A stretch of DNA of 48,083 nt, from assembly GCA_031284165.1 (NCBI GenBank), contig JAITAK010000052.1:1-48083 (forward strand), given 5' to 3'. Origin of the DNA: Puniceicoccales bacterium. Its GTDB lineage: Bacteria; Verrucomicrobiota; Verrucomicrobiia; Opitutales; LL51. The notes beneath the pieces were generated by a model, which was not told where the DNA came from, did no database searches, and was given only the letters and a program-made list of their open reading frames with translations. This document shows, piece by piece, positions 7,909 to 37,749 of this stretch (its first letter is position 1; each line of letters begins with the position of its first letter). A program made the translations under genes and the position numbers.

Positions 7909-9612
7909 TTACATGGCAATATTTTGGATCAGCGTCACAAGAGGAAGGAAGAGTCCAATCACGACAGAACCGACAAAACCTGCAAGAAATATCACCAATA
8001 CCGGTTCTATCATAGACGTTGTACGCGTAATAAGCTCGTCTAATTGCTCTTCGTAGGACAGAGCAACTCTATTCATCATTGCCCCGAGTTTTCCTGATTC
8101 TTCTCCTACCTTAATCAGTCCTTCAGCCATGACGGGAAATACATTGCGCCGACGCAAAGCCACCGTTAAAGACATGCCTTGTTGCACATCCCTAATGGTC
8201 AGGGCTAAGTTAGCTTTCATATAACAATTATTGATGCTTTCGCTAGCCATTTTCAGCGATTCAATGACGGAACAACCGCAGAGGAGGAGGTCCCCAAAGG
8301 TGCGAGAAAAAAGGACCACATCCCACTTCATTATACAATCTCCAAGTAGCGGTATTTTCAGGACGACGGCGTAAAACACTTTTTTAAGGAATGCGATTTT
8401 CTTAGCACCCAATATCACCAAAGGCATGATCAGCAAAGTTACCAATATTTCTTTGAGATGTGTCGTTACGAATCGGCTGCTGTCCAAAATGATCACGGTT
8501 AATGTTGGCATAACGTGAGCGCCAATTTGTTCAGCGATCACTTTTTCAAACCTGGGAACGACGAAAGTCGTTAGTAGCAAGATGACCATCGAAGAAACAG
8601 TGAAGACTGTGGCCGGATAAAGCATCGCCGAAATGATTTTTTTCTTAATGAAGATCTTTTTTTCCATCAAATTTGCCATTTTCGCCAATGTATTGGCTTG
8701 TTGTCCAACGGCTTCACCGGCGCGTACCATCGCAATTTCCGAGGTCTCAAACTTGACAACAGAAGACGTCAAAGCTTCAGAAAGAGAATTCCCTGCCTCG
8801 ATTTTTACGAATAAATCATGCAGGAAAAACCATGTATTTTCGTGACGTGCCTCTTGTTCTTTCAAAATAGCTAAGGAGGAACGAAGATCCATCCCCGCAT
8901 CTAAAAGTGCCGAAAGTTGGCGAATAATCTGTGCTTTCTTTTCAATTTTCAGTTTCAACGATCCTATAGCTTTCTTTTTTGCCGTTTTTCTCTCTGCAGT
9001 ACGCCGATATTTTCTCGATTGCTGTGGCGCAGAAGTATAAGGTGGCGCTTCATGAGCTTCCGGGTTCTTCATCGCGGCGTCTGTTGCTGCGTTTACCGCA
9101 GTATTTTCGCGATATTCCCGTAGTTGTTCCCCATCATAGCATATCTTGTGTCCATGCCTCTGCTGCCCTTGATTTACTGAGGTCATCGCTGAGGAATCTT
9201 TTTTATGTGTTATGTCCATGCCATCATCCAATACCGCCTGACTAAGCGTTAAAGGATCTGAGGAAAGCGATATTGCGCCCTCCTTAGCTTCAGTGTTGCA
9301 GTTGACGGTAGATATGTCTCTCGTGGAAGGGGCAGCCTCCAAAAGCCTAGAAGCGTCGTCTTTTAACGAGCAATCTGCGCTTTCCGAAAGCCCATCTCGA
9401 TGCGCTATCTCTTGAGCCCATGTGTTGGAGGAATCCGCAAAAGACCGGAAATGGGTCTTCCAAGGATGATCGTCTTGCAATGAATGTTCCGAGCATTCCC
9501 CGATCAATCCTTGTGTTTGCTCGTCTTTTCCCTGCATTTCATGGAAGAAGCTTTCCTGGTACCGATCAATTCTGTTCTGGAAAGCGTTTTTTAAAAACTG
9601 TCGAAATTTCAT
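7909..9612 (-). CDS. Type II secretion/type IV pilus platform protein, GspF/PilC family, with ~210-aa non-homologous N-terminal extension
   Basis: The C-terminal ~350 aa shows two T2SSF-like halves (QLSALLDAGMDLRSSLAILKEQ...; FGDLLLCGCSVIESLKMASES...GEESGKLGAMMNRVALSYEEQLDE) and three hydrophobic spans, ending ...GLFLPLVTLIQNI. The ATG at 9612 overlaps the upstream stop as ATGA. Confidence 0.75.
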   Translation of the reverse strand: MKFRQFLKNAFQNRIDRYQESFFHEMQGKDEQTQGLIGECSEHSLQDDHPWKTHFRSFADSSNTWAQEIAHRDGLSESADCSLKDDASRLLEAAPSTRDISTVNCNTEAKEGAISLSSDPLTLSQAVLDDGMDITHKKDSSAMTSVNQGQQRHGHKICYDGEQLREYRENTAVNAATDAAMKNPEAHEAPPYTSAPQQSRKYRRTAERKTAKKKAIGSLKLKIEKKAQIIRQLSALLDAGMDLRSSLAILKEQEARHENTWFFLHDLFVKIEAGNSLSEALTSSVVKFETSEIAMVRAGEAVGQQANTLAKMANLMEKKIFIKKKIISAMLYPATVFTVSSMVILLLTTFVVPRFEKVIAEQIGAHVMPTLTVIILDSSRFVTTHLKEILVTLLIMPLVILGAKKIAFLKKVFYAVVLKIPLLGDCIMKWDVVLFSRTFGDLLLCGCSVIESLKMASESINNCYMKANLALTIRDVQQGMSLTVALRRRNVFPVMAEGLIKVGEESGKLGAMMNRVALSYEEQLDELITRTTSMIEPVLVIFLAGFVGSVVIGLFLPLVTLIQNIAM

Positions 9613-10658
9613 GACATATTCCGCTTAAATTTGACCTTGCGTTTGGCGATGTTTTGGACGCTCTGTTTGACAGCGATATCGTCATTTTCGGCAATTTCGA
9701 TGCCAATAATATGTTCGAAAATGTCATCCAAAGTCAACACACCGACGATTTTATTTCCTTTCTTGACAAATGCAAGCTGCGTTAAGTTCTTTAGCAGAAC
9801 ATCGAGGGCATCGTCTACAAACATATCGTCGGAAAGAACCTTGGGAATCTCCATAATACGAGACAGTTGAATTTGGGCACCATTCGTGGCAAAAGCATGC
9901 AAAATTTTTCGGCGATGGACAATACCTACGAGATTTTCTGGATTGTTCGCATAAACAGGAATGCGACCCGTGGGAATGTTTTCATTATTAGCAATGAATA
10001 CGTCGCGAACGGTTGTATTCTTACTATAGGTGCTTAGATGATCCAGCGGAGTCATAATCTGAGCGATCACCGTGTAATCCATCTTCAGCGTATTTTCGAT
10101 CATCTTGCGTTCTTGATGGCTTAGTGTTCCATCGCGCACATTCTTTTCGGCAAGGAGCATGATCTCTCGATCAGAGTAGGCGGCATCGGCAGACTTTTTT
10201 CCTATAACCAGCCTTAAAATAAAACGGCAAATCTTGGAAAAGGGATACATCATTAAAACGACAAATTTGAGCAGATAAGCGGCAGGAATATACAATTTCT
10301 TCCGATAGATCAGACCGAGATTTTTAGGGAAAATTTCCGAAAATAACAAAATGATCACCGTTAGTCCCGTCGAAAAATAAACCAGCTTATCTTCACCGTA
10401 GATCTTGACGACCAGGCCTCCGGCGACAATGGCGCCAAAAGTATTGGAAAAAGTATTGAGCATGATGATTGCCGAGGAAGTTTCATCCATATTCTTTTTA
10501 CACTTTTCCATGGCGTGAGCAGCGCGTTTAGATTTGGAGCGAAGGTCTTCAAGTTCGATATCACTGGCACTGAAAAGGATCGCTTCGAGCAACGAAGCGA
10601 TTGTAGAGATACCTACCGTTAATGTTATGGTCAAAAGTAGGAGAAAAAAAGAACCCAT
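9609..10658 (-). CDS. CNNM/DUF21 transmembrane domain plus tandem CBS domains protein (TlyC/CorC hemolysin-family)
   Basis: MGSFFLLLLTITLTVGISTIASLLEAILFSASDIELEDL is a typical DUF21 start. Two CBS modules follow (IMTPLDHL...VGIVHRRKIL; IMEIPKVL...VGVLTLDDIFEHIIG). The ATG at 10658 is preferred. The longer ORF to 10820 would overlap the divergent ankyrin gene. No C-terminal CorC_HlyC domain is apparent. Confidence 0.75.
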   Translation of the reverse strand: MGSFFLLLLTITLTVGISTIASLLEAILFSASDIELEDLRSKSKRAAHAMEKCKKNMDETSSAIIMLNTFSNTFGAIVAGGLVVKIYGEDKLVYFSTGLTVIILLFSEIFPKNLGLIYRKKLYIPAAYLLKFVVLMMYPFSKICRFILRLVIGKKSADAAYSDREIMLLAEKNVRDGTLSHQERKMIENTLKMDYTVIAQIMTPLDHLSTYSKNTTVRDVFIANNENIPTGRIPVYANNPENLVGIVHRRKILHAFATNGAQIQLSRIMEIPKVLSDDMFVDDALDVLLKNLTQLAFVKKGNKIVGVLTLDDIFEHIIGIEIAENDDIAVKQSVQNIAKRKVKFKRNMS

Positions 10659-10803
10659 GGAACGATCTGACCATAATAGGGAACTGCAGCGGAGCGCAAT
10701 GAAATATATTGTAATTAAAATATTTATAAAAAAAATTGCTACTGATAAAAAATTTCGCAGAAATAATGAAATGCTTTCCGAGAAAATAAAAATTTTAAGA
10801 TTG

Positions 10804-12063
10804 ATGCGCTTTAGCGCCATCGCACTTCAGGTCATAGTCCATTGCCTTCAAGGAAGTTTAAATGCTTCATCATCAGCAGCGTCGGAAACGTTGAGCAAAT
10901 TTAACAGCAATCTTTATAAGGATACACCTTATTTAGACGCTGTCCGCCACGGCGATATACTCGAAATACAGCAATTTTTAAGCGATCCCTTACTGGATAT
11001 CAATCAGCAAAATAGTTCAGGAGAAACCGACTTAATGTTAGTGTTAGCGATGATCGCGATCTATGGACAATGTCGTGATAAAGGCCTGAAAAAAGCTCAA
11101 GATATTTTCAATTTATTAATGCAGCAACCCAAAAGGGATTGGAATTTACGCAACAACAACGGAGAAACTGCCCTCTGGCAGGCGACATCATTACGCCTTT
11201 GGGAATGCTTTAATGCCTTGTTACAGGTAGAAGCTGTAGACCCTAACATTCCCGATCAGAAAGGATTTACGCCCCTGACATTGCTCATAGAAATGAGGAA
11301 GGGGAGCCGCAATGATCCCGACAAAGCAAGTCTCTTGGAGATAATAAAATGTTTACTTCAATGTGAACGCGTCGATGTCAATCAAGAGGGAGATGGTGGA
11401 ATAACGCCATTAATTTTAGTCATTAAGTTGCAAGACGGGCTATTACTTTCCGCGTTTCTCGAATGTCGACGATTTTCCCTGGTTGCTTGTCAGAGCCATT
11501 CCTTACTTCAGCACCTTGGCAACCCACAGGGCTCACAGTTTCCCCGCAACACTTCACGTCTATTTCCATTGGAAGTGGCTTGGAAACAATATGCCTATTC
11601 TGATCGTCACTTCCTGCCTATATTCGATCTTATTTATCAGCGTATTTTGAGCGATGTTGATATGGAATTAATGCGCTACCTTAAACAAGTTAAGGAACGG
11701 TTATCGCAACTGAGCGATGTAAATTCGACAATTTGTGATGCACAAGACATACTTCAGACTATAGCAGCATTATACGAAACACCCGTAGTCATCAAATCTT
11801 ATGAATGCTGTAGCGATGATATACTTATCAAAGCTATCCGATATAAAATTAATTTCATTTCAAATCTGATTGAGGACAAAAATCTGCCACTCGTTTTGAC
11901 GATGAAGCGCATGTCTCAGCTAGGAAAGATCGTCACACAATTGGAGCAATTTTTGATATGTAGAAATCAACAAAATTTGGAATTGCTTAAAGATGCCTTG
12001 TATCAAGAACTTGACAATTATGAATATAAAGGTTATTTGAAAAAACAACTTAAAAAACTTTAA
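10804..12063 (+). CDS. Ankyrin-repeat protein
   Basis: ANK-like units are present: DAVRHGDILEIQQFLSDPLLDINQQNSSGETDLMLVL; NLRNNNGETALWQATSLRLWECFNALLQVEAVDPNIPDQKGFTPLTLLIE; DVNQEGDGGITPLILVIKLQDGLLLSAFLE. The listed TTG start at 10534 is antisense to the CNNM gene. In-frame ATGs at 10771 and 10804 are more plausible. MRFSAIALQVIVHCLQGSLNA is leader-like. Confidence 0.7.
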   Translation: MRFSAIALQVIVHCLQGSLNASSSAASETLSKFNSNLYKDTPYLDAVRHGDILEIQQFLSDPLLDINQQNSSGETDLMLVLAMIAIYGQCRDKGLKKAQDIFNLLMQQPKRDWNLRNNNGETALWQATSLRLWECFNALLQVEAVDPNIPDQKGFTPLTLLIEMRKGSRNDPDKASLLEIIKCLLQCERVDVNQEGDGGITPLILVIKLQDGLLLSAFLECRRFSLVACQSHSLLQHLGNPQGSQFPRNTSRLFPLEVAWKQYAYSDRHFLPIFDLIYQRILSDVDMELMRYLKQVKERLSQLSDVNSTICDAQDILQTIAALYETPVVIKSYECCSDDILIKAIRYKINFISNLIEDKNLPLVLTMKRMSQLGKIVTQLEQFLICRNQQNLELLKDALYQELDNYEYKGYLKKQLKKL

Positions 12064-12293: not shown

Positions 12294-13913
12294 ATGGCTA
12301 AAATAGTATTAAGAAAAATCGTCGGTGTTATATTACTCATGTATCCCTTAATTAGTCAGGGATGGAATGTGGTTATCGATGGTCGAGGGAATGTTTTAAC
12401 GGAAAATAGCGCAATTGATAAAGAAAAGGCGACTATTCTCATCCAGAATGGAGAATTTTCTGTCAGGTATGGACAATTTTGGCTTTATTGGCCTGACGTC
12501 ATTGGTGAGACCTATAATTTTAAGCAGTGTTATCTACCCGATGTGCCATTATTTGTGCCTGTCGATGGCGAGGAGTTCTATCAATACGTTCTTTCTAAGG
12601 AAGGGAACGTCAATAAAAGCAATGAAAGTTCATTAGGGAAAACGGAGAGCGAAATACTAAACCCCGATGGCGATGTCCTTTGTTGCCTTCAGTTGCTTAG
12701 AAACAAAAATGCGATGAAAGGTGAGAAAAAAAAGTTTATTGAACATGTCGTCTTTTACCGCTACAATACAGGCAACCGTTATTTTTTCCTCGCTCCCGCT
12801 GCAAAATTGCACAAACTTATTCAATTTGCCTTAGCGGGTGGTGCCAAAAGGGCTTTTAAACTTTATATCGGTATCGATGGAGAAGTGGATTCAAGTGAAG
12901 ATGCGAAAAATAAAATTACCAGCTTTCCTAACTGGTTTGCTCCGCGCAATTATTATATTAAAAATGACGGTAACGAATTTAATACGATGACCTTAAGGGA
13001 GAACGACGGTTTTGCACTCTCTGGGTTGGCAAGCCAAGGCTGGATCGGCTGGACGGGAAATGATACGGGATGGAAAGGAAAATATAGCCTCCCAGGAATT
13101 AATTTAGAAGATCAAAGCGTCGCCCATAAGGGAGAAAATCGGTCAATAACAACACAAGTACTTATAGGCGATGTGACACTACTAACGCACCACATCTTTT
13201 TAAATCAAGGTTCCATAGAAAAAATCCAAGAGGCATTATTTGGGAGCAATGATCGTCTCCCCGAAGGTCTAAAAGATTGCAATACTTCGAAATACGGCGA
13301 TTTGACTTCATTCGTCATAAAATTATTAGACGCCACTAGCGACGAAAATTCAAGAAAGTCTGTCTTAGGAAACGTTATAGAGCGGCTAGCGACAGAACTT
13401 GATGCTGAGACGAACCCTAGTCATGAATCGTCACAGTACGTCGTGAAAAAATTATCTGGAGAACAGGTGCCCTTCCGTACTTGGCTCGAAAATAAAAAAG
13501 CTGCTCAGAAAGAAGTTCCTCAAAGGAAAGTTCTTAAGGAAGAAACTCCTCAAAGGAAAGCGCCTAAGGAAGAAACTCCTCAAAGGAAAGTACTTAAGAA
13601 AGAAACTCCTCCAGGAAAAGCGCCTAAGAACAAAATTCCTCCGAATCCTCTGAAACAAATTCCCCAGGAAGAAAATTTTCAGAATAATCCGCTACCAGAC
13701 CTCTCTGACGAATACATCCAAAGCCATTTCAATAGCATTGCGAATGACATTGTCAAGAAATGTCGTACCGGAAGTATCAGCGCTGATGAAGCCGTCACTG
13801 AGCTGAAGCAACTCAAAGAACGTGGCATAAAATTGGGGATAATGGTTGTCAGAATTCAATCAGCTTTGTCGGAAGTAGAAAGGCATCGCATGTATCCTAA
13901 AAATTATAAATGA
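12294..13913 (+). CDS. Paralogous family member 1 (P1): unrecognised conserved N-domain, repeat linker and C-terminal helical module
   Basis: The first ATG is at 12294 (the listed 12279 is TTG) and is preceded by aagagaaaata. The hydrophobic leader ends in ISQGW. It shares the blocks ILIQNG, FWLY, YLPDVPLFVPV, DVLCCLQL, FYRY..NRYFFLAPAAKLH, GFALSGLASQGW, LPGINL, ITTQV and LLTHHIFLNQ with the ORFs at 14099, 22824 and 24891. Confidence 0.8.
   Translation: MAKIVLRKIVGVILLMYPLISQGWNVVIDGRGNVLTENSAIDKEKATILIQNGEFSVRYGQFWLYWPDVIGETYNFKQCYLPDVPLFVPVDGEEFYQYVLSKEGNVNKSNESSLGKTESEILNPDGDVLCCLQLLRNKNAMKGEKKKFIEHVVFYRYNTGNRYFFLAPAAKLHKLIQFALAGGAKRAFKLYIGIDGEVDSSEDAKNKITSFPNWFAPRNYYIKNDGNEFNTMTLRENDGFALSGLASQGWIGWTGNDTGWKGKYSLPGINLEDQSVAHKGENRSITTQVLIGDVTLLTHHIFLNQGSIEKIQEALFGSNDRLPEGLKDCNTSKYGDLTSFVIKLLDATSDENSRKSVLGNVIERLATELDAETNPSHESSQYVVKKLSGEQVPFRTWLENKKAAQKEVPQRKVLKEETPQRKAPKEETPQRKVLKKETPPGKAPKNKIPPNPLKQIPQEENFQNNPLPDLSDEYIQSHFNSIANDIVKKCRTGSISADEAVTELKQLKERGIKLGIMVVRIQSALSEVERHRMYPKNYK
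13509..13658 (+). repeat. 30-bp in-frame tandem repeat, 4 good plus 1 degenerate copies (KEVPQRKVLK/EETPQRKAPK...)
   Basis: The units are 13509-13538, 13539-13568, 13569-13598 and 13599-13628, with a degenerate unit at 13629-13658. The consensus is gaagaaactcctcaaaggaaagYRcYtaag. Confidence 0.9.
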
Positions 13914-14098
13914 TGACAGCATTAAAATTACGATTGATATGAACAAGGCTATGTTGCAGAACCGTAGCGATAAGCACCAATGTTTACCCATTCATTTGTA
14001 CTTATGAATTTCGATGAGACGCCGATATTTCTTAATAATGGGTTGTAAAGAAACGGGAGACTGTCGCAAACACTAAACAATTTGGAATGGAGAGGGAA

Positions 14099-16291
14099 AT
14101 GAATACCAAAGTTATAAAAAAAATCGCTGCAGGGATATTACTGATCTATCCCGCGATGATGGATGCGTGGGACGCTATGATCGATAATGACAATAATGCG
14201 ATTCTCGATAATACGACTAGTGCAGCCTATTGTCGGAATAATCCAAGCATTTTGATTCAAAACGGTTATCAATCGGTGAAATACGGAAAATTTTGGTTAT
14301 ATGAACCCGATCCTTGGCAAGGACGCCATTATGCTAAATCAACAACAGAAAAATTCTATTATTTATCCGATGTCCCTACATTTATGCCCGTCTATGATGA
14401 TGCTCATTATAAATACCCTAAAAGTAAAATCTTTGGCGGTATCAACATGGACGGATTGGGAACGAGTAGCAGCGAAATATTAATGCCCTATACCAATGTA
14501 ATTTGTTGCTTACAATTATCCAAAGACGGCGATAAGCGCTGGGGGAATAATTTTATAGAACAGATGATTTTTTACCGCTACAAGAAAAGTAATCGCTATC
14601 TTTTTTTTGCCCCTGCGGCTAAATTACATCACATCTTGGATAAAAACGACAGCGAAGAATTTGAACTTCATCTTAGCCTCAGTAAAACTATTTCCTGGGA
14701 ACAAGGCGCGAAAAATCAAATCAATGATTTTCCAGATTTTGACTTTCAAAAGCACTATGTTGATAAAAAAATTACCACATTTTATACCATGAATTTAGGA
14801 GAAAAAGATGGTTTTGCGCTTTCCGGTTTAGCAAGTCAAGGTCGAGCGAATTGGCTAGGGCGTGTTAGTGGAGGTCAATGCGGTCTTCCGGGGATTCGTT
14901 TACTTCAAACTGCAAACAATCAATGGATAACGACGCAAATTAAAGCCAAAGGCAGGACATTTCTCACACATCATATTTTCTTAAATGAAAATTTTACGCA
15001 ACAAGTGCATAATGCCCTGTTTCGTCCCAATAATCATTTACCGGAATGCTTGAGGGATTACGACACTGTAACTTATGGAGATCTCGTTTCATTCCTATGG
15101 AAATTGGAAAGTAATGAAGCGATTCGAAAGGATCCCATCCTCGCAGACGTTTTAGATAGGCTTCACGATGAGCTGAATAATGAAAAAAATCCGAGCCACG
15201 AACAATATTTGCAGTCGCAAAAGGATGACCCAACGTTGAAAGCTCAGGAAAACAAAGCATCATCTTTCCTTCAACAATTCAATACGTCGCCTTTAACAGG
15301 GCTAAAATTTAGCCCAGAACAGCTAAAGCAGGTCGATGCTGCTCAAGTAAAAAAGGACGTTACTCCAAGGAAAGGAACAAGTAAGATTCGAGAGAATCTT
15401 ATCTTAATTAAGAACGTTAAGAACGTTGCCGACGAACTGAATAATGAAGAAAATCCAAGCCACAAGCCATCCTTGCCATCGAAAAAGGATAGCCCGGCGT
15501 TGAAAGTCCAGAAAAATAAAAAATCACCTTTGCGACCATCCCTATTCAATACGTCGCCTTTGACAGGGCCAAAATTTAGCCAAGGTCCGCGAAGTGCAAA
15601 TGTGGCTCAAATGGAATATAATGTTTTTCACTCAAAGAGGAAAAAAAGCAAACTGAAAGCGAAAACCAAAAGCGATTCGGAAGATAAAAGTACGTTGAAA
15701 GAAGAAAAAATAATCCCTAAGCGGCGAAATACAGTTATCTCTAGCCCAGGGAATAAGAACAATATCACCGGTTTTAATTCAAAGAGGAAGGAAGCCGTTA
15801 AATCACCGGTTTTAATACGCCCTACAGCAAAAGGGGTGCCCTTTCATCAGAAAAATGAAAATGAATCGCCTACCATTGAAACAAAGAATGATGACAGCGA
15901 TTTCAACTTAAATGGAGAAAAAGCGATTCGAGAACAGGAGTATACTGAAGAGGAAAAAGAGGAGTCAGCGATTTCAACGCAAATGGAAACTAAAGGGATT
16001 CCGAAACAGGAAAATATGACTTTGCCTCGAAATGAAGGAGTTGCCCAAAGAACGTTAAAGTCAAACATATCATTTAATGAGTGCTTGAATGATATCATCA
16101 AGCGTTGTAAGACTCACAATATGACTATCGATAGAGCGCTGAAAATGTTAGATCACGCAAAACAACAGGCGTTAAATCAGGTAAAGACAAATTTCTCAGG
16201 GGAAAAGCAAAAAAATATCGAGAAAAGGATATTACAGCAAATTCTCAACGCGAAAAATGAGATTGAACGATCTCGCTCAGGGAAAAAATAA
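14099..16291 (+). CDS. Paralogous family member 2 (P2)
   Basis: It has the same colinear blocks: ILIQNGYQSVKYGKFWLYEPD, YLSDVPTFMPV, NVICCLQL, MIFYRYKKSNRYLFFAPAAKLH, GFALSGLASQG, GLPGIRL, WITTQI, FLTHHIFLNE and LPECLRD. The ATG at 14099 follows ggagagg. The ATG at 14087 is an alternative. The tail is long and Lys/Ser/Pro/Glu-rich. Confidence 0.8.
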   Translation: MNTKVIKKIAAGILLIYPAMMDAWDAMIDNDNNAILDNTTSAAYCRNNPSILIQNGYQSVKYGKFWLYEPDPWQGRHYAKSTTEKFYYLSDVPTFMPVYDDAHYKYPKSKIFGGINMDGLGTSSSEILMPYTNVICCLQLSKDGDKRWGNNFIEQMIFYRYKKSNRYLFFAPAAKLHHILDKNDSEEFELHLSLSKTISWEQGAKNQINDFPDFDFQKHYVDKKITTFYTMNLGEKDGFALSGLASQGRANWLGRVSGGQCGLPGIRLLQTANNQWITTQIKAKGRTFLTHHIFLNENFTQQVHNALFRPNNHLPECLRDYDTVTYGDLVSFLWKLESNEAIRKDPILADVLDRLHDELNNEKNPSHEQYLQSQKDDPTLKAQENKASSFLQQFNTSPLTGLKFSPEQLKQVDAAQVKKDVTPRKGTSKIRENLILIKNVKNVADELNNEENPSHKPSLPSKKDSPALKVQKNKKSPLRPSLFNTSPLTGPKFSQGPRSANVAQMEYNVFHSKRKKSKLKAKTKSDSEDKSTLKEEKIIPKRRNTVISSPGNKNNITGFNSKRKEAVKSPVLIRPTAKGVPFHQKNENESPTIETKNDDSDFNLNGEKAIREQEYTEEEKEESAISTQMETKGIPKQENMTLPRNEGVAQRTLKSNISFNECLNDIIKRCKTHNMTIDRALKMLDHAKQQALNQVKTNFSGEKQKNIEKRILQQILNAKNEIERSRSGKK
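15167..15580 (+). repeat. Internal ~150-bp duplication with 264-bp period inside the P2 linker
   Basis: Copy 1 (15167-15313) encodes DELNNEKNPSHEQYLQSQKDDPTLKAQENK...FNTSPLTGLKFS. Copy 2 (15431-15580) encodes DELNNEENPSHKPSLPSKKDSPALKVQKNK...FNTSPLTGPKFS. Confidence 0.85.
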
Positions 16292-16342
16292 CGAAAAAAC
16301 AATAAAACAATTAACATTAATTATTAAAATATGGAGATAAAA

Positions 16343-24635: not shown

Positions 24636-24890
24636 GAGAAAAATTCTGCGAATCTGAGGGGAGTGCGCAACAAAATGCAGCGATTGTAAAAGCAAAATGG
24701 GATGTGACGATATTATTAAGGCCTGGGAGTATAAAGAGCATCATGGTCAGTGATACCTCCCAAATCGCATTTTTCTTTGGGTTTCTTAAGCGATGGACTT
24801 ATGTCGTCGTACTTTATAGTGCGATCGATGTACAAAATTCTTACGCTATAATTGCGGCGGGTATGCTGTCGAATTTTAGAAATAAATGCT

Positions 24891-27113
24891 ATGGGTAACA
24901 AAATAAAAAAGAAAGTATGGGTTAGTCTTATATTGCTTCTAGCATCCCTAGGAGCGTACGGGTGGACTACAATTATTAATAAAGGAAAAACAATTTTAGG
25001 CAATGAAGTTAAAGAGTTCAGTTCCAATAATTTTGCAAGAATCAATAAGGAAAAATTGGTACACACCTCAGGGACGACGTTATCTATCGATTCCAAGATT
25101 TTGAGGTCTATTTCCCATGCGATATTTCGAAAAAATTTAACAATCCTTATCCAAAATAAAGATCAAAGTGTGCAATACGAACAATTTTGGTTATATGATC
25201 CTGATTTTATTCCTAAAGATTCCAACAAATCTCCATATAAGCATCCTTTCAGTCATTCCATTGAAGAAAAATGTACATTTTTTTATCTGCCAGATGTCCC
25301 TCTATTTGTTCCTGTACATAAAAACACATTTTATAACTATCGCAAAGTTGACGGAGGAATAAAAAATAAAAATGTGCTTGGAAAGGGTAAGAGTGAAAAA
25401 TTACGGTTCCATAGCGATGTGATATGTTGCATGAAGTTGTTTAGGGAAGAAAATGCAAAGGTTTTGGAAAAAACAAATAGAGTCGCTGAAAATAGAAATG
25501 AACAAAATGTTATTGAACAGATCGTTTTTTACCGCTACAGCCCCGCTAATCGCTATTTTTTCCTTTCACCGGCCGCTAAATTACATCATCTCATAGATGA
25601 TGTCCTTACTTTCGGTTGCCGAAAACCATTCGAATTACAGATGGGCATTGATGGAAGAATCGCTTCAGGGAAAAACGCCAAGACACGCATCGCAGATTTC
25701 CCAAATACATTCACTTTCCAAAATCACTACCTCATTCGGGAAACTTCTCATTTCTTTACAATGCACTTGAAGGAAAAAGGAGGCTTCGTACTGTCTGCTT
25801 TAGCCAATCAAGGTTGGATTGGTAATGAAACCGGTGGAAGTTATGGCCTTCCAGGTATTAATTTGGTGAGCGATACCCATAGCGTAGATCTCACCAATAA
25901 AGGACAAAATAAATGGGTGACGACCAAAGTCAGTATAGGGAATACGCAATTTCTGACGCATCACATTTTTTTAAATCAAACCTTCACGGCTAAACTTGAA
26001 TGGGTATTATTGGGGCAAAATTTCAATTTACTGGAGGGTTTGAAAGATTCCGATACAAAAGTTTATGGAGATTTGGTTTCCTTCTGGGCAAAATCGACGC
26101 TCAATGAAGAGATTCGCAAGGATTGGCTCCTGATGAATGTTTTCGAAAAAATTGAAGATGGACTTAAAAATAAAAATAATCCAAGCCATCAACAGTACAA
26201 AGATTATTGCCAAGCCTATGCCTATTACAAGGTCGCTCATGTCGTTCACGATTTTAAAGTCAAGGTCGAAGAAAGTATAAAACTGATTTCTCAAGATAGC
26301 GAAATCGTCAGTGAAATAGAGAAAATTACCCAAAAAATGAAGATCATTCAATGGAAAGATGAGGGAATCGCAGAACTCAATAAATTGGAAAATGACTTGC
26401 TTGACCAAGATGATCCGAGTGATGCGCCAATCGATACCATTGAAACCGGAAAAGCTTGTATCGAAGAAGAATTCCAAAGGGTATTACAGGCATTCGACGC
26501 TTCAAAGCGACCGTCACAGTTATTAAAGCCGGTGTCAAGAAAGAAACCCGTAGCTAAAAAGCCAACGCCCATAGCAAGAAGTTCAGCCAGGAGACAACAA
26601 AGACGGATCAGTCTATCCCAGAGACGCCAAAGATGGAACGCAATAAGAAGAAGAGCAAGAGCCCATAAAGGGAATTTAACGCCTCCCAAGGGCAGTTCTC
26701 GAAAGCCTACGCCAACATCACCAAGAACAATGCGTAATAAAAAAGCAGCCAATCCTCAAAATCAGAATAAGCAACCCCCAAAGCAAGATTCAAATAACCC
26801 AGAAGAAAACCAAGAGCCCGAGAAAAAATTCATGGGAGAACCAGAAAAATCTCAGTCTTTTGGATATACAACTACGGTGAATACACCTGAAAAAGGCAAA
26901 AATAAGCATTATACCAACGCCAAAGATCTCGTGAAAAAATTCAAGGAAAATTTGCAAAAGCGCATCGATAAGATGACAAAGCAATTGAATGAAATGCAGA
27001 AAAATCCCGATAACTTCGATTACTCAAAGGTTAATGCTATGCGCGAACAATTTTATCACCTGCTCAATACCTTAAAACAAGGCCAAGTTATGGCTAACGA
27101 TACATACCTGTAA
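24891..27113 (+). CDS. Paralogous family member 4 (P4) with basic Pro/Arg/Lys linker
   Basis: The first ATG is at 24891 (the listed 24852 is TTG). The leader is VWVSLILLLASLGAYGW. Shared blocks are ILIQNKDQSVQYEQFWLYDPD, YLPDVPLFVPV, DVICCMKL, IVFYRYSPANRYFFLSPAAKLH, GFVLSALANQGW, GLPGINL, WVTTKV, FLTHHIFLNQ, LLEGLKD and NPSH. It has a ~45-aa insertion after the leader. Confidence 0.8.
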   Translation: MGNKIKKKVWVSLILLLASLGAYGWTTIINKGKTILGNEVKEFSSNNFARINKEKLVHTSGTTLSIDSKILRSISHAIFRKNLTILIQNKDQSVQYEQFWLYDPDFIPKDSNKSPYKHPFSHSIEEKCTFFYLPDVPLFVPVHKNTFYNYRKVDGGIKNKNVLGKGKSEKLRFHSDVICCMKLFREENAKVLEKTNRVAENRNEQNVIEQIVFYRYSPANRYFFLSPAAKLHHLIDDVLTFGCRKPFELQMGIDGRIASGKNAKTRIADFPNTFTFQNHYLIRETSHFFTMHLKEKGGFVLSALANQGWIGNETGGSYGLPGINLVSDTHSVDLTNKGQNKWVTTKVSIGNTQFLTHHIFLNQTFTAKLEWVLLGQNFNLLEGLKDSDTKVYGDLVSFWAKSTLNEEIRKDWLLMNVFEKIEDGLKNKNNPSHQQYKDYCQAYAYYKVAHVVHDFKVKVEESIKLISQDSEIVSEIEKITQKMKIIQWKDEGIAELNKLENDLLDQDDPSDAPIDTIETGKACIEEEFQRVLQAFDASKRPSQLLKPVSRKKPVAKKPTPIARSSARRQQRRISLSQRRQRWNAIRRRARAHKGNLTPPKGSSRKPTPTSPRTMRNKKAANPQNQNKQPPKQDSNNPEENQEPEKKFMGEPEKSQSFGYTTTVNTPEKGKNKHYTNAKDLVKKFKENLQKRIDKMTKQLNEMQKNPDNFDYSKVNAMREQFYHLLNTLKQGQVMANDTYL

Positions 27114-27188
27114 AATATTAAAGTCGACGAGATGACGATCATTTCATCAATTTTTCTTTTCCTGCAGTCAGGTCCTTTAAAGAAAAAT

Positions 27189-27608
27189 TTATGAGGAACG
27201 ATGATTTTGCATCAAAAAAGCAATGGAATTATAATCTTTGAGTGCCTTCTTGATCACTTGAGTAATACTCTCCTGGGTTCCTTGAATGGGGATGGCCCTA
27301 CGTTGGCTGATCGGCTTATGTTCTATGACGATATCATTAGGAAATTTTAGAAATTTTTTCAGAGAAGTCACTTTTATTCCCTTAAATTTACCTTTAGGTT
27401 TACCGCCTACGGTTATTTTTCGTTCTGACAAATGGGTATGAGGAACGATTTGCCACGGATCGCCAAGCGATTTTGAGAACGCTGGATCGATGCTGCGTTT
27501 CCCTCGTTTCGAACTTTGCGAAACCTCCGCAATACGTTGCATTTCAAGAGCGGTGTCCTCGTGTTCTTCAACGATCATGCCATAGTCAAAATTATCCCTA
27601 GATTCCAT
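27189..27608 (-). CDS. Small hypothetical protein immediately downstream of the T3S chaperone (candidate chaperone partner or substrate)
   Basis: The ATG at 27608 (MESRDNFDYG...) is preceded by aggaaaggaaatcaca. The longer listed start at 27650 lies 20 nt inside the chaperone gene. The N-terminus is acidic and the centre is Lys-rich (GGKPKGKFKGIKVTSLKKFLKF). I recognise no family. Confidence 0.5.
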   Translation of the reverse strand: MESRDNFDYGMIVEEHEDTALEMQRIAEVSQSSKRGKRSIDPAFSKSLGDPWQIVPHTHLSERKITVGGKPKGKFKGIKVTSLKKFLKFPNDIVIEHKPISQRRAIPIQGTQESITQVIKKALKDYNSIAFLMQNHRSS

Positions 27609-27630
27609 TGTGATTTCCTTTCCTAATTTT

Positions 27631-28113
27631 TTAATTTTTCCATGATCCATACTTCTTCTTTGTTGGAATCGTTTTTAAATCTTCATCACTGAGCATTTCA
27701 GCTTCAGTGCAAATTTCGTCAATACGCTTCATCCACGCATCGACTACATCAACAAATACAGCTAAATCGTCTTCGAAAGCATTCGAATCGGCCAAAGGAA
27801 GCAAAAACTTTTTCTGTAAGACTAGAGTCTGCGTTTGCTTATCAATGGCGAATGTCGCACCGTTGGAAACTTTCCAAAAAAAATTGGCTTCTAGAAGTAC
27901 TTCCAAAACGAGCTCTTTCCCCATAAATGGAACTACGCTAATATAGGAATATACAATTAATGCGCCTTCTTCTTCATTGAGCTCTAAATTAAGTACAATT
28001 TTATCATCAAATAGAATTAAACAATGATTATTGGAGTCTAAGGTCAATGACGATAAATCCAGGACTTTTGCAAGTTCCTGAAGTAGATGATTTACTTCGT
28101 TTTTATAATCCAT
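27631..28113 (-). CDS. Class I type III secretion chaperone (CesT/SycE-like fold family)
   Basis: 160 aa and acidic. The pattern LLQELAKVLDLSSLTLDSNNHCLILFDDKIVLNLELNEEEGALIVYSYISVVP...LEVLLEANFFWKVSNGATFAIDKQTQTLVLQKKFLLPLADSNAFEDDLAVFVDVVDAWMKRI matches the canonical layout of CesT/Tir-chaperone family proteins as I know it. That layout is: announce the target, 'alien' example, L-L-Y, LLeaNlf, GatlalD...l.L. Confidence 0.75.
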   Translation of the reverse strand: MDYKNEVNHLLQELAKVLDLSSLTLDSNNHCLILFDDKIVLNLELNEEEGALIVYSYISVVPFMGKELVLEVLLEANFFWKVSNGATFAIDKQTQTLVLQKKFLLPLADSNAFEDDLAVFVDVVDAWMKRIDEICTEAEMLSDEDLKTIPTKKKYGSWKN

Positions 28114-28200
28114 ATCCCATTTCCATCACAACAATTGCATTAAATGCGTTAAAAACATAGCTGTTTAAATCAATAAAATGATTTTACATATTTTTGCAAC

Positions 28201-28227
28201 AAAAAAAGCGTTCATGAAACTCATGAA
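28201..28227 (-). terminator. Intrinsic terminator candidate after the lipoprotein gene
   Basis: On the minus strand, TTCATGA-GTT-TCATGAA forms a perfect 7-bp stem. It is followed after CGC by TTTTTTT and lies 43 nt downstream of the stop at 28270. Confidence 0.45.
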
Positions 28228-28269
28228 GAACAAACGTTCGCGCAATTAATTGCTCATCGAAAATTCTGT

Positions 28270-29364
28270 TCAATTCGCAGAAAGACTCAACGTGGGAACG
28301 ACAGCCATGGAATCACCTGCCTGTAGATTAAATAGGTAACTTATGAATAAAAATGTCGATTTGGAATTGAGGTCGTTGTCGGCAATATAAAACCATTTTC
28401 CGCGGTAAAAAATGCTGACAAACGCATTTTCAGGACGCGCCTTCGCTTCAGCACAATGGATGGCGATCCATTTCCCTGAAAGATGTTGATTCCAATGAAA
28501 TACGGCTCCATTTTCATCTTTTGTTTCCGTAACCAATCCGGTTTCAATGTCATGGAAGGGAACATCGACGGCATGGGAAAGATAAAATAGAACTTCAATC
28601 ATAGAACGCGTACGTATCGTTAGAATCGTATCGCGCTTATCTAAAGCATTGGAACTTAAATGAAACTCTGACTGATTGGGATCGAGACCCAAAATGGATT
28701 TCAATTCTTGTACTCCGGGATGATTGGAATCTGTAAACTGAACTACCCATTCTTTGGGATGATCAAAACGTGTACCAATGAGCAAACACTTTTGTTTATA
28801 CAAATTTTCAATGAGGTTTACGGCTTCACTAAAGGGCTCATAAACTGGCTTTGTAGTCGGTGTTGGCCCTGAGGCGCTGCTCGCATTATCGAGATCATTG
28901 ATGCTTTCAATGCACAAATTGAAAACCCGTTGCGGACTCCATCCGGATTGCATGAGACCAAAAACAACCGCTAAAGGTATCGGCGAAACCATTCTTTGGG
29001 TAAACTTTTCACCTTGAAGTGGAGTATAAAAAATGGTAGGATTTTGAAAAATCTCGCTATAGGCGATAATGCCCAACTCATAGTGGCCGGCATTTTTGTC
29101 GAACCCAAGCTTCGACCCACTAGGGCCAATACGCGTCGTCAATTTGCGATTTTCGCTAATGCTACTGACTTCTAAGAAATAGGGATTATCGCGATATTTG
29201 AGACGGACCATATTTAGTAATAGTTGTTCATCGGTGGTCTTCACAATTGCACTATTATATTCACAATGTGCTTTTTCGACAGAACTGGGTCCCACAGATT
29301 TACATCCTCCTATACAGAGAAAAGTCGCTATATACAAGGCTGGCCTTCTAAGTTTATTAATCAT
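28270..29364 (-). CDS. Hypothetical lipoprotein (364 aa)
   Basis: MINKLRRPALYIATFLCIGGCKSVG has a lipobox-like IGGC. The rest is globular with no recognised motif. Confidence 0.6.
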   Translation of the reverse strand: MINKLRRPALYIATFLCIGGCKSVGPSSVEKAHCEYNSAIVKTTDEQLLLNMVRLKYRDNPYFLEVSSISENRKLTTRIGPSGSKLGFDKNAGHYELGIIAYSEIFQNPTIFYTPLQGEKFTQRMVSPIPLAVVFGLMQSGWSPQRVFNLCIESINDLDNASSASGPTPTTKPVYEPFSEAVNLIENLYKQKCLLIGTRFDHPKEWVVQFTDSNHPGVQELKSILGLDPNQSEFHLSSNALDKRDTILTIRTRSMIEVLFYLSHAVDVPFHDIETGLVTETKDENGAVFHWNQHLSGKWIAIHCAEAKARPENAFVSIFYRGKWFYIADNDLNSKSTFLFISYLFNLQAGDSMAVVPTLSLSAN

Positions 29365-29439
29365 AAATGCGTTTCCGATGACTAAAGTAAATGAAAAATT
29401 TTTTCTGTCAACAATGTAGCAGATTTTATAGACAAGTTG

Positions 29440-31116
29440 TTATTCATCAACGCGGGTTTGCATATTCATTATAGAAGCCAGCATTTGATATTGTTGCAGA
29501 GATGCCTGTTGATCGCCCTTGATTTTCATTTCATCTAAAATTTTATAAATAATGTAGTCACTAAAATTTCTTTTATCTTCTTTTTCTAAATCACTGACTT
29601 TTTTTTCAACAGCAATGGGGTCGATCTCCTCATCAGAAGGAATGGTCTTTTTTTCTAAAAATATGATTTCCGCTTCCATTTTTTTCATAGGAATTATCGA
29701 AGAAATACTTTTGGGATGATTGGGATGAAGTTCCGAAAGCGCTTCTCTCTCTTCGGAAGTAATCTTAGCATTATTGAGATCCTCTTCATGAAATACCGCT
29801 GTGGTCCCGTGGTAATCCGTAACAATTTTCATGAATGATTCGCGGTTCATATCTTGAACTTCATCCAGTGTTTTTTTGATTTTATCCATCTGATCCAAAA
29901 AGATCTCTTCTTTTTTCCAAATCAAAAAATCTTCCGTAACCTGTGCTCTAACACTATCTAGTGGGGGATATAAGGACGGGATGATGCCCCTATAAAGTAA
30001 AATACACACTTCGCCGTTTTTACTGATGACGGGATCCGAATAGTAGCGTTGATCATTTAATTTAGTTGTCTGCGCTAGAGATTCAGCGTAAAAATACTGA
30101 TTTTCTGAGAATTGCCCTAGGGTTACAGCATCCAAATGCTGAATTTTTAATTGATGATCTTCAAGGAGTCGCTTAAATTCTTCAGAATCGCAAGCGATAT
30201 TTTTTTCATAGAGTTGATAGACCCAGCGATCGGCGGCTTTCATAGCGTGTTGAGTAATTTTATGATCTCGGTAGGCTTTGGCAAGTTCATCGTTAAACGC
30301 CTCGGAATCCTTCTTCAAATGTTTAAATTGACGGCTGTGTTTATTGTAAAAATGCTGAAGCGCCGATGGCGAAGCTTCCGGAATTTTCTCAGCAAATAAT
30401 TCGGGAGAAAATATAACATAATCCAAAAGGATTTGCTCTTTAATTTTATAGGCTTCTTCATGATCTTTGAAGTATTTTTGAAGTTCTTCTTCGGTGACTT
30501 TAACTTCCTCCGATAAAAGCGGAGCACCAAATTTAGCGACGATGAAGGAATATTTCGTCAATGCTCGGGTGATGGCTAATTTTGCGTTTTGAGCTAAGCA
30601 ATAACCCTGTGCAGACAGTAATTTTTCCACGGTATCGATTCTAAAATCATTGGCGACCATTTGTTCAAAGATGGCCCATTGCTGGGTATTTCCCTGGAGT
30701 TGCTCCAAAAAATTGTTGTATTTATTGACGTCGAATTGACGATCTTTCCCTTTAAAGGCAGGGTAATTTTCGATGAAGCGATTCATCAAACTTTTATGAG
30801 GTTCCGGAATATGGAGATCATCGGCGAGTTTTAGTGCCGTAAGACGTGCAAGGAGGGCGTAGTCCTTTAATTGAGGGATACCAATGAAAATTTGACGTAA
30901 TTGGGCGCTTAATTCTAACTCCTGCAGTATCGGAACGATTTCTTTTTGAGAAGATAAATCGTGGCCAAAAAACTTTTGGCTCTGTCTGCGCGAGTTGCGA
31001 CCAATGCCCGGAGAAGATCCGACGGTAAAAACAAAGCTAATCGTGATGATAATCAATAAAATCGAAAACAACCATTTATGGTGTTTCTGCAAAATTTTCT
31101 GCAAAGAAGAGATCAT
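29440..31116 (-). CDS. Membrane-anchored periplasmic chaperone, PpiD/SurA-N-like (no obvious PPIase domain)
   Basis: The N-terminus MISSLQKILQKHHKWLFSILLIIITISFVFTVG is the PpiD-type single anchor. A long helical Lys/Glu-rich ectodomain follows. The call rests on architecture, not on catalytic motifs. Confidence 0.45.
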   Translation of the reverse strand: MISSLQKILQKHHKWLFSILLIIITISFVFTVGSSPGIGRNSRRQSQKFFGHDLSSQKEIVPILQELELSAQLRQIFIGIPQLKDYALLARLTALKLADDLHIPEPHKSLMNRFIENYPAFKGKDRQFDVNKYNNFLEQLQGNTQQWAIFEQMVANDFRIDTVEKLLSAQGYCLAQNAKLAITRALTKYSFIVAKFGAPLLSEEVKVTEEELQKYFKDHEEAYKIKEQILLDYVIFSPELFAEKIPEASPSALQHFYNKHSRQFKHLKKDSEAFNDELAKAYRDHKITQHAMKAADRWVYQLYEKNIACDSEEFKRLLEDHQLKIQHLDAVTLGQFSENQYFYAESLAQTTKLNDQRYYSDPVISKNGEVCILLYRGIIPSLYPPLDSVRAQVTEDFLIWKKEEIFLDQMDKIKKTLDEVQDMNRESFMKIVTDYHGTTAVFHEEDLNNAKITSEEREALSELHPNHPKSISSIIPMKKMEAEIIFLEKKTIPSDEEIDPIAVEKKVSDLEKEDKRNFSDYIIYKILDEMKIKGDQQASLQQYQMLASIMNMQTRVDE

Positions 31117-31198
31117 AGGATGCGATTCCTAAACGATAGAATATTTATTTGAAAAATTTTCAAGCCATTCTTAGACTTAGAAGGGTTAAAACTGATAT

Positions 31199-31579
31199 CT
31201 AAAAATGTCGGAAAATGGCATATTCTTTTTCTATGGGCTTATCAATAGGTTTGTCGCTTCCTCGTTCAGCTATTTTCGCAATACTGATCGCCAATGCATA
31301 TAATTGGGGAGAAATTGAAGCGATTGGCGTTTTTTCTTTAAGCGTAAGCTTCCATTTTTCTTGTCCCAAGCCTATTTCGAAGGAAGATCCTGCACTCATG
31401 GAATTTTTGATGCGGTTAACGAGTATCGTTGCGATTATCCCTTCATTGGGATCAGCATCGCTAGCATTTTTATATAAGTCCAAACCGACGAGGAACCCTT
31501 GAGTAACGACGCCGGCAACGAGTGCAAAAATTGAAAGCCCAATAATGACTTCAATTAATAAATATCCTCTTCGATTCAT
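31199..31579 (-). CDS. Prepilin-type N-terminal cleavage/methylation domain protein (T2SS pseudopilin / minor pilin)
   Basis: MNRRG|YLLIEVIIGLSIFALVAGV is the G-[FY]-x-L-I-E prepilin signature. The ATG at 31579 is preferred over the listed 31600. Confidence 0.7.
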   Translation of the reverse strand: MNRRGYLLIEVIIGLSIFALVAGVVTQGFLVGLDLYKNASDADPNEGIIATILVNRIKNSMSAGSSFEIGLGQEKWKLTLKEKTPIASISPQLYALAISIAKIAERGSDKPIDKPIEKEYAIFRHF

Positions 31580-31623
31580 TGGATAATATATCGTAATCAT
31601 TTGGAAGCAATTGGCAAGCGCGA

Positions 31624-33087
31624 TTAGCGATCATACTGCAATACATAGGCTTTTAAAGTTGAAGCCATAGCTTCTAGCGCAGCGAATTGACCGGAAGTCA
31701 TGCGCCATTGCCAATTATGACATTCTGTCCCAGGGATATTCAATCGCCCTTCGGAGTCCAAACCCAGGAGATCTTGAACGCTAATGATTCCCAGGAAACA
31801 GGGAGATCGGTAAATTTCCGTCAAAAATTTCCATAAAACCTCATGATCGTCAATTCCAAAGTAGCGATGGATCTGATCTTTGGTCGATTCGTCGCAATGG
31901 CGATACCAACCGAGCAGCGTATCGTTATCGTGGGTTCCGATGTAAAGTACGGCAAAAGGATGATGATGGTGAGGAAGGTAGCTGTTTTTAGCATCGTGAG
32001 AAAAGGCAAACTGCATGACTTTCATCCCTGGACAGGACAGCTGTTCCATAAGTCGGTGAACACTCGCATCTAACTCGCCCAAATCTTCGGCGATCAGAGG
32101 AATATTTTTAAAATGGCGAAATAACTTTTCGCCAGGGCCTCTTTCCCATTTTCCGTTTTTAGCCGTTAACGCATTTTGCGGTACGCTCCAAAAGCGGTCG
32201 AACCCACGAAAATGGTCAAGGCGGAGAACATCAAAGATTTCTCGATGGTATTCGATACGTCGTCGCCACCAATCATAATTTGTCCTTTCGAGATAGGACC
32301 AATCATAGACGGGATTGCCCCAAAGTTGACCATCTTCTGAAAAATAATCAGGCGGCACACCGGCAATACGTAAAGGCTTTAGGTTTTCATCGAGTTGAAA
32401 GTTTTTGGGTTCGCTCCAAACGTCGGCGCTATCCAATCCCGGATACATGGGGATATCACCGATAATTTGCACACCTTTTTCATGGGCATAACCCTTTAAT
32501 TTTTGCCACTGCTGATAAGCGAGGTACTGTAAAATTTCGTAGCTTTCGCCGTCTTCGAGAATAGAAGGCGCTAACTTTGTAACATCGATCTTGGCATATT
32601 GACGGTAAGGTGGAGGCCATTCCATCCAAGATTTTCCTTCAAAATGTTTCTTCAATGCAGAAAATAGCGCATAGGGCCTGAGCCAGGGCGTATGTGCCCG
32701 AAAATATCGCAGCTTTTCCCGCTCATTTTGCGGGAAATTTTCTCGAATCTTCGACAACGCATCTTGAAAAAAATGATAGATCGCTCCAAAAGCAACACGA
32801 CATTCATCGTTCGGTAAGTCGGGTATCGAAATCTCCAGCGCCTTGAGGTCGATAAAATAGGGATTGATAGCCCATGAAGACAATCCTTGGTAAGGAGAAT
32901 CACCGTAACCCGTTGGCGTCAAGGGACAAACTTGCCAAAATTTCATCCCTGCAGCGCATAAAAAGTCGACAAATTGATAGGCATTCTTGTCGAAACATCC
33001 AATACCCTGCGCACTCGGAAGACAGGAGATATGCATCGCTACCCCTACAGCCCGTTTTTTAGTCCATAAACCACCCACGCGGGCCAT
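31624..33087 (-). CDS. malQ: 4-alpha-glucanotransferase (amylomaltase, GH77)
   Basis: Motifs are GVAMHISCLPS..GIG, FWQVCPLTPTGYGDSPYQ, GDIPMYPGLDSADVW, LRLDHFRGF, IAEDLG and GTHDNDT. Confidence 0.9.
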   Translation of the reverse strand: MARVGGLWTKKRAVGVAMHISCLPSAQGIGCFDKNAYQFVDFLCAAGMKFWQVCPLTPTGYGDSPYQGLSSWAINPYFIDLKALEISIPDLPNDECRVAFGAIYHFFQDALSKIRENFPQNEREKLRYFRAHTPWLRPYALFSALKKHFEGKSWMEWPPPYRQYAKIDVTKLAPSILEDGESYEILQYLAYQQWQKLKGYAHEKGVQIIGDIPMYPGLDSADVWSEPKNFQLDENLKPLRIAGVPPDYFSEDGQLWGNPVYDWSYLERTNYDWWRRRIEYHREIFDVLRLDHFRGFDRFWSVPQNALTAKNGKWERGPGEKLFRHFKNIPLIAEDLGELDASVHRLMEQLSCPGMKVMQFAFSHDAKNSYLPHHHHPFAVLYIGTHDNDTLLGWYRHCDESTKDQIHRYFGIDDHEVLWKFLTEIYRSPCFLGIISVQDLLGLDSEGRLNIPGTECHNWQWRMTSGQFAALEAMASTLKAYVLQYDR

Positions 33088-33093
33088 TATACG

Positions 33094-35238: not shown

Positions 35239-35412
35239 CCTAAAAGATTTTAACCTATAAAGTGATCAATGAAGAATCGAAAATAATGGCGAGTATAATT
35301 GTTAAAGGCGCTAATTTTTACTTAGGACTACATTACTATATCGCTATAGGTCTTTGTGACGTCTGCATGGACACTTGTCACTCACTGTGAATGGCTTGAG
35401 GCTCAATGAAAG

Positions 35413-35440
35413 TTGCAATGCCACCGATAAAAAATATATT
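35413..35440 (+). promoter_or_regulatory. Sigma-70-like promoter candidate for priA
   Basis: TTGCAA (35413-35418), a 16-nt spacer, then TATATT (35435-35440). The predicted start site is within a few nt of the priA ATG at 35449. No Shine-Dalgarno is visible. Confidence 0.35.
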
Positions 35441-35448
35441 ATTTGTCC

Positions 35449-37671: not shown

Positions 37672-37749
37672 CTATGAAAAAGCTTGCTCTTACCTTTTTA
37701 TTTGATTAGGGAACCTTGGACTTTTTAAAATTAAAACTATCTAGAAAAA

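Follow-up and report, generated by a model that had tools for sequence, protein, structure and literature searches.

What do the products of a bacterial gene array do that carries four copies of an unrecognised gene, two on each side of a giant open reading frame (ORF)? The array in question lies at 12294-27113 of contig JAITAK010000052.1, one complete 48,083-bp contig of the NCBI metagenome-assembled genome (MAG) 'Puniceicoccales bacterium'; by the window we mean this whole stretch of DNA. The array consists of five ORFs on the + strand, here called P1, P2, G, P3 and P4 (locus tags LBB11_03210 to 03225), in which P1-P4 are the paralogues and G is the giant ORF. We find that P1-P4 belong to a previously undescribed protein family. 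As to what the proteins do, the best reading, to which we give a probability of about one half, is that they are Sec-exported proteins of the envelope or the host interface, possibly released through a type II system, rather than type III effectors.

Four paralogues and their gene models

All five ORFs are present where an initial annotation, made from the sequence alone, had placed them. P1 (12294-13913, 539 aa, LBB11_03210) is composed of a leader of aa 1-23 (12294-12362), an N-terminal domain (N-domain) extending to aa ~381 (13436) and a basic tail (13437-13913). P2 (14099-16291, 730 aa, LBB11_03215) has the same layout, with the leader at 14099-14167, the N-domain to 15211 and the tail at 15212-16291. 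Next comes G (16343-22693, 2116 aa, LBB11_03220), which begins with a hydrophobic leader of its own, followed by P3 (22824-24635, 603 aa, LBB11_03225; leader 22824-22892, N-domain to 23984, tail 23985-24635) and P4 (24891-27113, 740 aa; leader 24891-24962, N-domain to 26201, tail 26202-27113). The N-domain of P4 holds an N-proximal insertion of ~50 aa. The genes are separated by spacers of 185, 51, 130 and 255 nt, the second of which becomes 39 nt if G starts at 16331. A purine-rich run resembling a Shine-Dalgarno sequence is found 5′ of every array gene except P4, and the upstream regions of the array genes share no promoter or motif beyond these runs. NCBI gives P3 588 aa, placing its start 15 codons 3′ of the ATG at 22824 and excluding 22824-22868; that start would delete the leader, which is conserved throughout the family, and we prefer the longer ORF as the gene model.

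The relatedness of the four genes, which the initial annotation had recognised by eye, is clear. Colinear alignment of P1-P4 extends over their first ~370-440 residues. In an alignment limited to the N-domain (~370-380 aa), which has 95 invariant columns, P2-P4 are 41-48% identical to P1. In a protein search, P3 matches P1 with E = 6.6e-65, far beyond chance. Every one of the motifs that had been listed is found: the G/A-W leader end, ILIQNG, FWLY, LPDVP.F.PV, D[VI][LI]CC, FYRY..NRY.F.PAAK.H, ALSGLASQG, LPGI.L, ITTQ, LTHHIFLN and LPE.L[KR]D..T..YG.

A family and a fold without characterised relatives

Neither P1-P4, nor G, nor 14 members of the family have a match in Pfam, NCBIfam or PHROGs, and profile searches of PDB sequences with the N-domain returned nothing at E <= 10. 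An AlphaFold2 (AF2) model of the N-domain of P3, built from a 14-sequence alignment, reached pLDDT 72.7 and pTM 0.80; an earlier model from 4 sequences had been unusable (pLDDT 42). The model is beta-rich, with about 15 strands followed by three C-terminal helices, and the N-domain has no internal duplication detectable by hhalign comparison of its thirds. Foldseek found no fold match to the model in the PDB (best E = 0.044, TM 0.17). In the BFVD database it matched uncharacterised Mimiviridae proteins with E values of 8e-6 to 2e-4 and probability 1.0, and these are the sole structural matches below E = 1e-3, at a TM of only 0.22-0.43 and a root-mean-square deviation (rmsd) of 8-15 A. The viral proteins come from Klosneuvirus-like giant viruses (LCMiAC01/02, Klosneuvirus, Hyperionvirus and Catovirus). 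We take them as a lead rather than a classification.

The profile and structure searches proposed in the initial annotation as a check on the N-domain thus ended without a match to any characterised family, and its description of the family as unrecognised stands against Pfam, NCBIfam, PHROGs, PDB sequences and PDB folds alike. Judging from the model, the fold of the N-domain is probably new too.

Leaders and the prospects for export

The ten full-length members of the family all begin with a leader of 22-24 aa that has 2-4 K/R and a hydrophobic core of ~10 residues. Proline stands at -6 in seven of the ten, and small residues (A/G/S/T) occupy both -3 and -1 in six; the leaders of P2 and P3 are small at -1 only, with M (P2) or V (P3) at -3. 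When the leaders are aligned, the putative cleavage site sits just before a conserved W, the +1 residue being Trp in nine of ten leaders and Phe in the homologue P0015. By this heuristic, the leaders have the n-h-c organisation of Sec substrates cleaved by signal peptidase I, and as far as sequence can tell, they bear the signature of that export pathway.

Beyond the leader there is no strong additional transmembrane segment. P1-P4 and G have no lipobox ([LVI][ASTVI][GAS]C) where the leader ends, and a search for C-terminal sorting signals found no LPxTG or PEP motif and no NCBIfam or Pfam match; the C-termini are basic and hydrophilic. The same contig encodes a GspF homologue (E = 2.3e-71, below the NCBIfam equivalog cut-off) and, near it, a gene with a weak pseudopilin-like N-methylation motif (E 7.6e-4, below the Pfam cut-off). 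With these two genes on the contig, we propose that type II release would be a natural route for the exported proteins.

Repetitive C-terminal tails

The C-terminal 160-360 residues of P1-P4 form tails that are hydrophilic (GRAVY about -1), basic (pI 9.8-12, with P1 at 9.8 and P3 at 12) and poor in aromatic residues; their composition suggests that they are probably disordered. The tails are made of private tandem repeats that differ in each copy and each species. The P1 tail has a 30-nt unit repeated 4.5 times at 13496-13641 (+; Tandem Repeats Finder), encoding four 10-aa units of ETPQRK(A/V)(P/L)K(E/K). The P2 tail (within 15212-16291, +) contains two ~45-aa 'ELNNE.NPSH...SPLTG.KFS' units, and the P3 tail has two copies of a 51-nt unit at 24269-24392 (+), corresponding to a 17-aa unit. 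Among the homologues elsewhere, P0007 has a tail of the form (KPEPQPKPPA)n and P0015 one of ~100-aa units. The C-terminal parts of P1-P4 are unalignable except for a 64-aa helical module common to P1 and P2 (31% identity, E = 6e-6). Histone-like SPKK/TPKK motifs show no overall enrichment in the tails: the strict pattern [ST]P[KR][KR] is absent or at expectation, and the looser [ST]P.[KR] is in excess in the P1 tail only (2 vs 0.2, p = 0.01).

A narrow distribution in a termite-gut lineage

When 1.84 billion representative proteins were scanned exhaustively with HMMER, 16 hits emerged, namely the four proteins of the window and 12 others. Those relatives that have names are all proteins of 'Puniceicoccales bacterium' MAGs, and the remainder stem from a few JGI samples and a single ENA assembly; none was traced outside this lineage. 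The sequencing run that contains P1 is SRR14710909. The taxonomic mapping that had been suggested therefore shows a very narrow spread. Word-index protein searches with the family recovered only the window's own proteins and P0015. Pattern scans of GTDB genomes, JGI metagenome contigs and IMG/VR found no relatives, with the proviso that exact patterns would miss divergent motifs and that the JGI collection scanned in this way evidently lacks the samples that hold relatives.

The PPDK encoded on the contig has its nearest relatives, at 82-64% identity, in the MAGs JAIRZB, JAITIW, JAIRRP, JAIRMM and others; Gsp477_bin70 is an example of their isolate names, and Gsp477 denotes a Glyptotermes species. 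Because their names match a study of termite-gut MAGs (PMC11257099) and their accessions lie in the range that it deposited, these nearest relatives are taken to be of termite-gut origin. According to that study, two families of Opitutales, LL51 and UBA9783, are small-genome, low-GC putative endosymbionts of termite gut flagellates and include the endonuclear 'Ca. Nucleococcus' (PMC11257099), for which a second paper gives a genome of ~1 Mb with ~700 coding sequences. From these sequence comparisons, the assignment of the window to the termite-gut Opitutales clade of putative flagellate endosymbionts (the 'Nucleococcus cluster') is well supported, and the host-interaction setting that the initial annotation had envisaged gains from it. 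At 47638-48083 the contig ends in a bacterial 16S rRNA gene, whose first 446 nt it contains (Rfam, 377.6 bits); this piece could be used to place the organism relative to 'Ca. Nucleococcus'.

A fast-evolving gene at a conserved site

In four related genomes (L001, L002, L003 and L005) the family gene is single-copy and lies at one conserved site. It is followed by trmD, rplS, a fliO-like gene, prmC, sctS, sctT and sctU, and is preceded by the divergent block deoC-murC-fabH-x-atpA, which is kept in L001-L003; the contig of L005 begins inside the family gene. The SctS, SctT and SctU proteins encoded beside the family gene in these relatives exceed the NCBIfam injectisome cut-offs. We also observe that the prmC methyltransferase gene occupies the place before sctS-sctT-sctU where sctR (fliP) would be expected, in a block conserved in all four genomes. 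Across them the family protein is 26-36% identical, compared with 38-92% for the proteins of 12 neighbouring genes, and the family gene is by far the fastest-evolving of its block.

In a neighbour-joining tree, P1-P4 are monophyletic with respect to the outside homologues (97% bootstrap); the pairing of P1 with P4 within them is weak (72%). The monophyly indicates that the array is a local expansion and not an ancient arrangement, in keeping with the lineage-specific expansion that had been predicted. A fifth homologue, P0009, is found in another genome (L004) among ORFs without a Pfam match, directly upstream of an ankyrin-repeat protein of at least 1016 aa (L004 12118-15165). An ankyrin protein also stands upstream of P1 (see below), so that the family has an ankyrin neighbour in two genomes.

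One further sequence, L007 (JGI 3300042605, 2113 bp), is a colinear patchwork of segments from window positions 24467-39348 at 74-92% nucleotide identity. It contains, in order, the end of P3, the P4 N-domain with internal deletions and frameshifts, a 250-nt piece of priA, radC-gpsA and a later piece of gpsA, and is without >10 kb of the window, including the CesT, malQ and murC/B genes. It looks like a decaying copy, and could represent a further-reduced sister strain, symbiont DNA in a host nucleus or an assembly chimera. The existence of decayed copies elsewhere fits with birth-and-death turnover of the family.

As to base composition, the GC content of the array (0.34-0.39) is slightly lower than that of its flanks (0.40-0.46). 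In their GC content at third codon positions (GC3) and their codon-position GC, the array genes lie close to the housekeeping neighbours, and nothing therefore points to a recent foreign origin. When the contig's ORFs were scanned against Pfam, no integrase or transposase domain came up, and the window contains no tRNA genes and no PHROG phage markers.

The giant ORF

G is a protein rich in E/K/N/Q, with 31 Cys, 2% proline and several short tandem repeats, and its composition suggests that it is largely alpha-helical. It had been called a giant coiled-coil protein. The giant ORF is real, whereas the coiled coil holds in part: in a crude scan of our own, strong heptad windows cover ~25% of its 2116 residues, compared with 4.5% in shuffled sequences. 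A word-index protein search found no homologue of G besides itself, G has no Pfam or NCBIfam domain and no PDB sequence match, and it is not homologous to the large proteins encoded beside homologues of the family elsewhere. The four related genomes with one family copy are without a giant ORF, as is the locus in L004, and the idea that a giant protein might be a regular partner of the family has to be given up. The bracketing of a giant ORF is peculiar to this contig.

Neighbouring genes in the window

The ankyrin protein that had been reported upstream of P1 is confirmed at 10534-12063 (+; Ank_2, E = 1.7e-9). As listed, with a TTG start, its ORF overlaps the convergent gene for a CNNM/CBS transporter (9609-10820, -) by ~290 nt, and the true start probably lies at an internal ATG, around 10768 or further downstream.

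Downstream, 0.5 kb from P4 and convergent to it, lies a gene for a CesT/SicP-like chaperone (27631-28113, -; CesT family, E = 5.5e-22). It overlaps by 20 nt an ORF of 153 aa (27189-27650, -) that has no family match. Because the chaperone gene overlaps this ORF and is on the strand opposite to P4, the 153-aa protein is the likelier client, and the two probably form a chaperone-effector pair that is separate from the array. The type III secretion chaperone of the initial annotation is thus present, but its link to the array is weak, the gene being in a convergent operon with a partner of its own.

Near the start of the contig, two adjacent paralogous ORFs (381-1559 and 1572-2360, both -) have the motifs 'VP[GS]DG.CGYWA[IV]LTA' and, C-terminally, 'GHYQAI.PE' in common. 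They had been taken for OTU proteases, which we could not substantiate: the motifs look like a Cys/His protease signature, and neither Pfam (E <= 1) nor PDB sequences gave an OTU match, nor did the two ORFs match another family in Pfam, NCBIfam or the PDB. The pair may be another private host-interaction family. Elsewhere, the 714-aa ORF at 33094-35238 (-) combines Mur-ligase (MurC-like) domains with the FAD-binding and C-terminal domains of MurB, and looks like two fused enzymes of peptidoglycan synthesis.

Possible roles of the family

We suggest that the array arose by lineage-specific tandem expansion of an exported family of the termite-gut 'Puniceicoccales'/Opitutales clade. In the scheme that we favour, Sec would carry the proteins across the inner membrane and they would act beyond the cytoplasm, whether at the cell surface or envelope or once released; release could go through a type II system. 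The conserved folded domain would supply a constant scaffold or binding function, and the polycationic repeat tail might contact variable, probably polyanionic, partners of the host or the envelope. Gene duplication and turnover of the tails would then reflect adaptation at the host interface. G would be a co-exported, lineage-private passenger of the locus and not a conserved partner. The phrase 'effector or surface-protein system', used in the initial annotation, is plausible for the family.

Several points weigh against the scheme. Because the family has no homology to any characterised protein, its function is something that we infer and nothing more. The leaders were assigned by heuristics and not by SignalP, and two members of the family have poor residues at -1 (E and M). 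The anchoring and sorting motifs that were looked for in the family were not found, and surface attachment and release are not separated by this result. Confidence in the AF2 model, which rests on 14 sequences, is moderate, and the copy number of four covers one contig of the source genome. Promoter and terminator scans of the array were at chance level, which bears on its putative co-transcription. Finally, a single copy kept in genomes of ~1 Mb could equally fit a housekeeping role in the envelope.

This last point leads to the possibility that the family is a clade-specific structural component of the envelope, such as a periplasm-spanning or outer-membrane scaffold in which the Pro/Lys-rich tails are spacers. 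The Sec leader would be expected of such a protein, several reduced genomes whose neighbouring proteins differ by 10-60% keep one copy in the same place, the P0007 tail resembles a TonB-like rod, and the beta-sandwich-like model weakly matches the folds of pilus chaperones and adhesins. A structural part of the envelope sits poorly, however, with the highest evolutionary rate in its block, with a copy number that varies from one to four and includes decayed copies, with tails that have no common design, and with a location beside ankyrin and ORFan genes in two genomes. Fast rate, copy variation, tail diversity and ankyrin/ORFan company are hallmarks of interface proteins rather than of core envelope parts, and we consider the structural role doubtful. 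A bolder version of the host-interface scheme is unlikely, namely that the N-domain is a new fold defining the principal host-interface factor of the flagellates' verrucomicrobial endosymbionts, exported through Sec and type II, with tails that bind chromatin, nucleic acid or another polyanionic host structure. Chromatin binding gains no direct support; SPKK-type motifs are not enriched overall.

Injection of the proteins as type III effectors, with the help of the neighbouring CesT-type chaperone, is distinctly unlikely. The clade does have an injectisome-type type III secretion system, with SctS, SctT and SctU encoded beside the family gene in relatives; the array has a chaperone gene on its 3′ side and an ankyrin protein upstream; and the family evolves fast. 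However, type III substrates normally are without the charged, hydrophobic Sec-type leader that all full-length members possess, and the chaperone gene lies on the strand opposite to P4, convergent to it, and overlaps a partner ORF of its own. Moreover, the synteny in relatives also takes in trmD, rplS and prmC, and is therefore that of a scrambled housekeeping block and not of a secretion operon. An origin from a mobile element or virus that carried the genes as cargo, or from recently acquired DNA of the host or a giant virus, is largely refuted and very improbable. It could appeal to the slight drop in GC and to the Foldseek matches in Mimiviridae, but the viral matches are poor in TM, the codon-position profiles are close to those of the neighbouring housekeeping genes, the scans for integrases, transposases, tRNA genes and PHROG matches came back empty, IMG/VR yielded no relatives, and the synteny in four genomes is vertical.

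Relation to known systems

In its genetics the family is reminiscent of the Pmp proteins of Chlamydiae, which are type V autotransporters: both are paralogous, clustered and fast-evolving, have leaders of the Sec type, belong to PVC bacteria that are intracellular or, for the present family, putatively so, and are presumed to act at the host interface. There is no sequence homology, however; P1-P4 are without GGA[ILV], FxxN is at roughly the expectation from composition, and neither Pfam (E <= 1) nor the Foldseek search of the PDB found a beta-barrel translocator in the family. The layout is reversed as well, with the conserved part N-terminal and the variable part C-terminal. The tails call to mind the TRPs of Ehrlichia and TarP of Chlamydia, other proteins of host-restricted bacteria with lineage-private, repeat-bearing and probably disordered regions that vary by species. 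Those proteins are substrates of type I or type III systems and are not known to have Sec leaders or a shared folded domain of 350 aa, and no homology between them and the family was detected.

Type II substrates such as CPAF of Chlamydia and the Lsp substrates of Legionella are similar to the family in having a Sec leader and no membrane anchor, and the contig has its GspF and pseudopilin-like genes; the family is not homologous to any known substrate. Type II substrates are not known to carry a recognisable sequence signal. The likeness to type III effectors served by CesT/SicP chaperones consists in the proximity of a CesT-family chaperone gene and in the injectisome of the clade, and is offset by the cleavable Sec-type leader of the family and by the separate convergent operon in which the chaperone gene lies with its partner ORF. 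As for the Mimiviridae proteins (UniProt A0A481YZI8, A0A4P6VP83 and A0A1V0SKZ2), the structural resemblance below E = 1e-3 is accompanied by low TM and high rmsd values and by no sequence signal in the exhaustive HMMER search, and the viral proteins are themselves of unknown function.

Implications for the symbiosis

Private families of Sec-exported, repeat-tailed and fast-evolving paralogues are well known in intracellular and host-restricted bacteria, and lineage-restricted families are common in endosymbionts. Because the wider phenomenon is familiar, the value of the present family is mainly local to this symbiosis. Our search of the literature found no description of molecular host-interaction factors for the verrucomicrobial symbionts of termite flagellates, which are uncultured. 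If the tails do bind chromatin or other polyanions, copy expansion and tail turnover would track host adaptation. The family offers a probable new fold for structural study and possibly a marker gene for the clade. We suggest that it provides a concrete, clade-specific candidate for a host-interaction factor, one that is of the exported type, is the fastest-evolving in a conserved block and has been amplified in one lineage.

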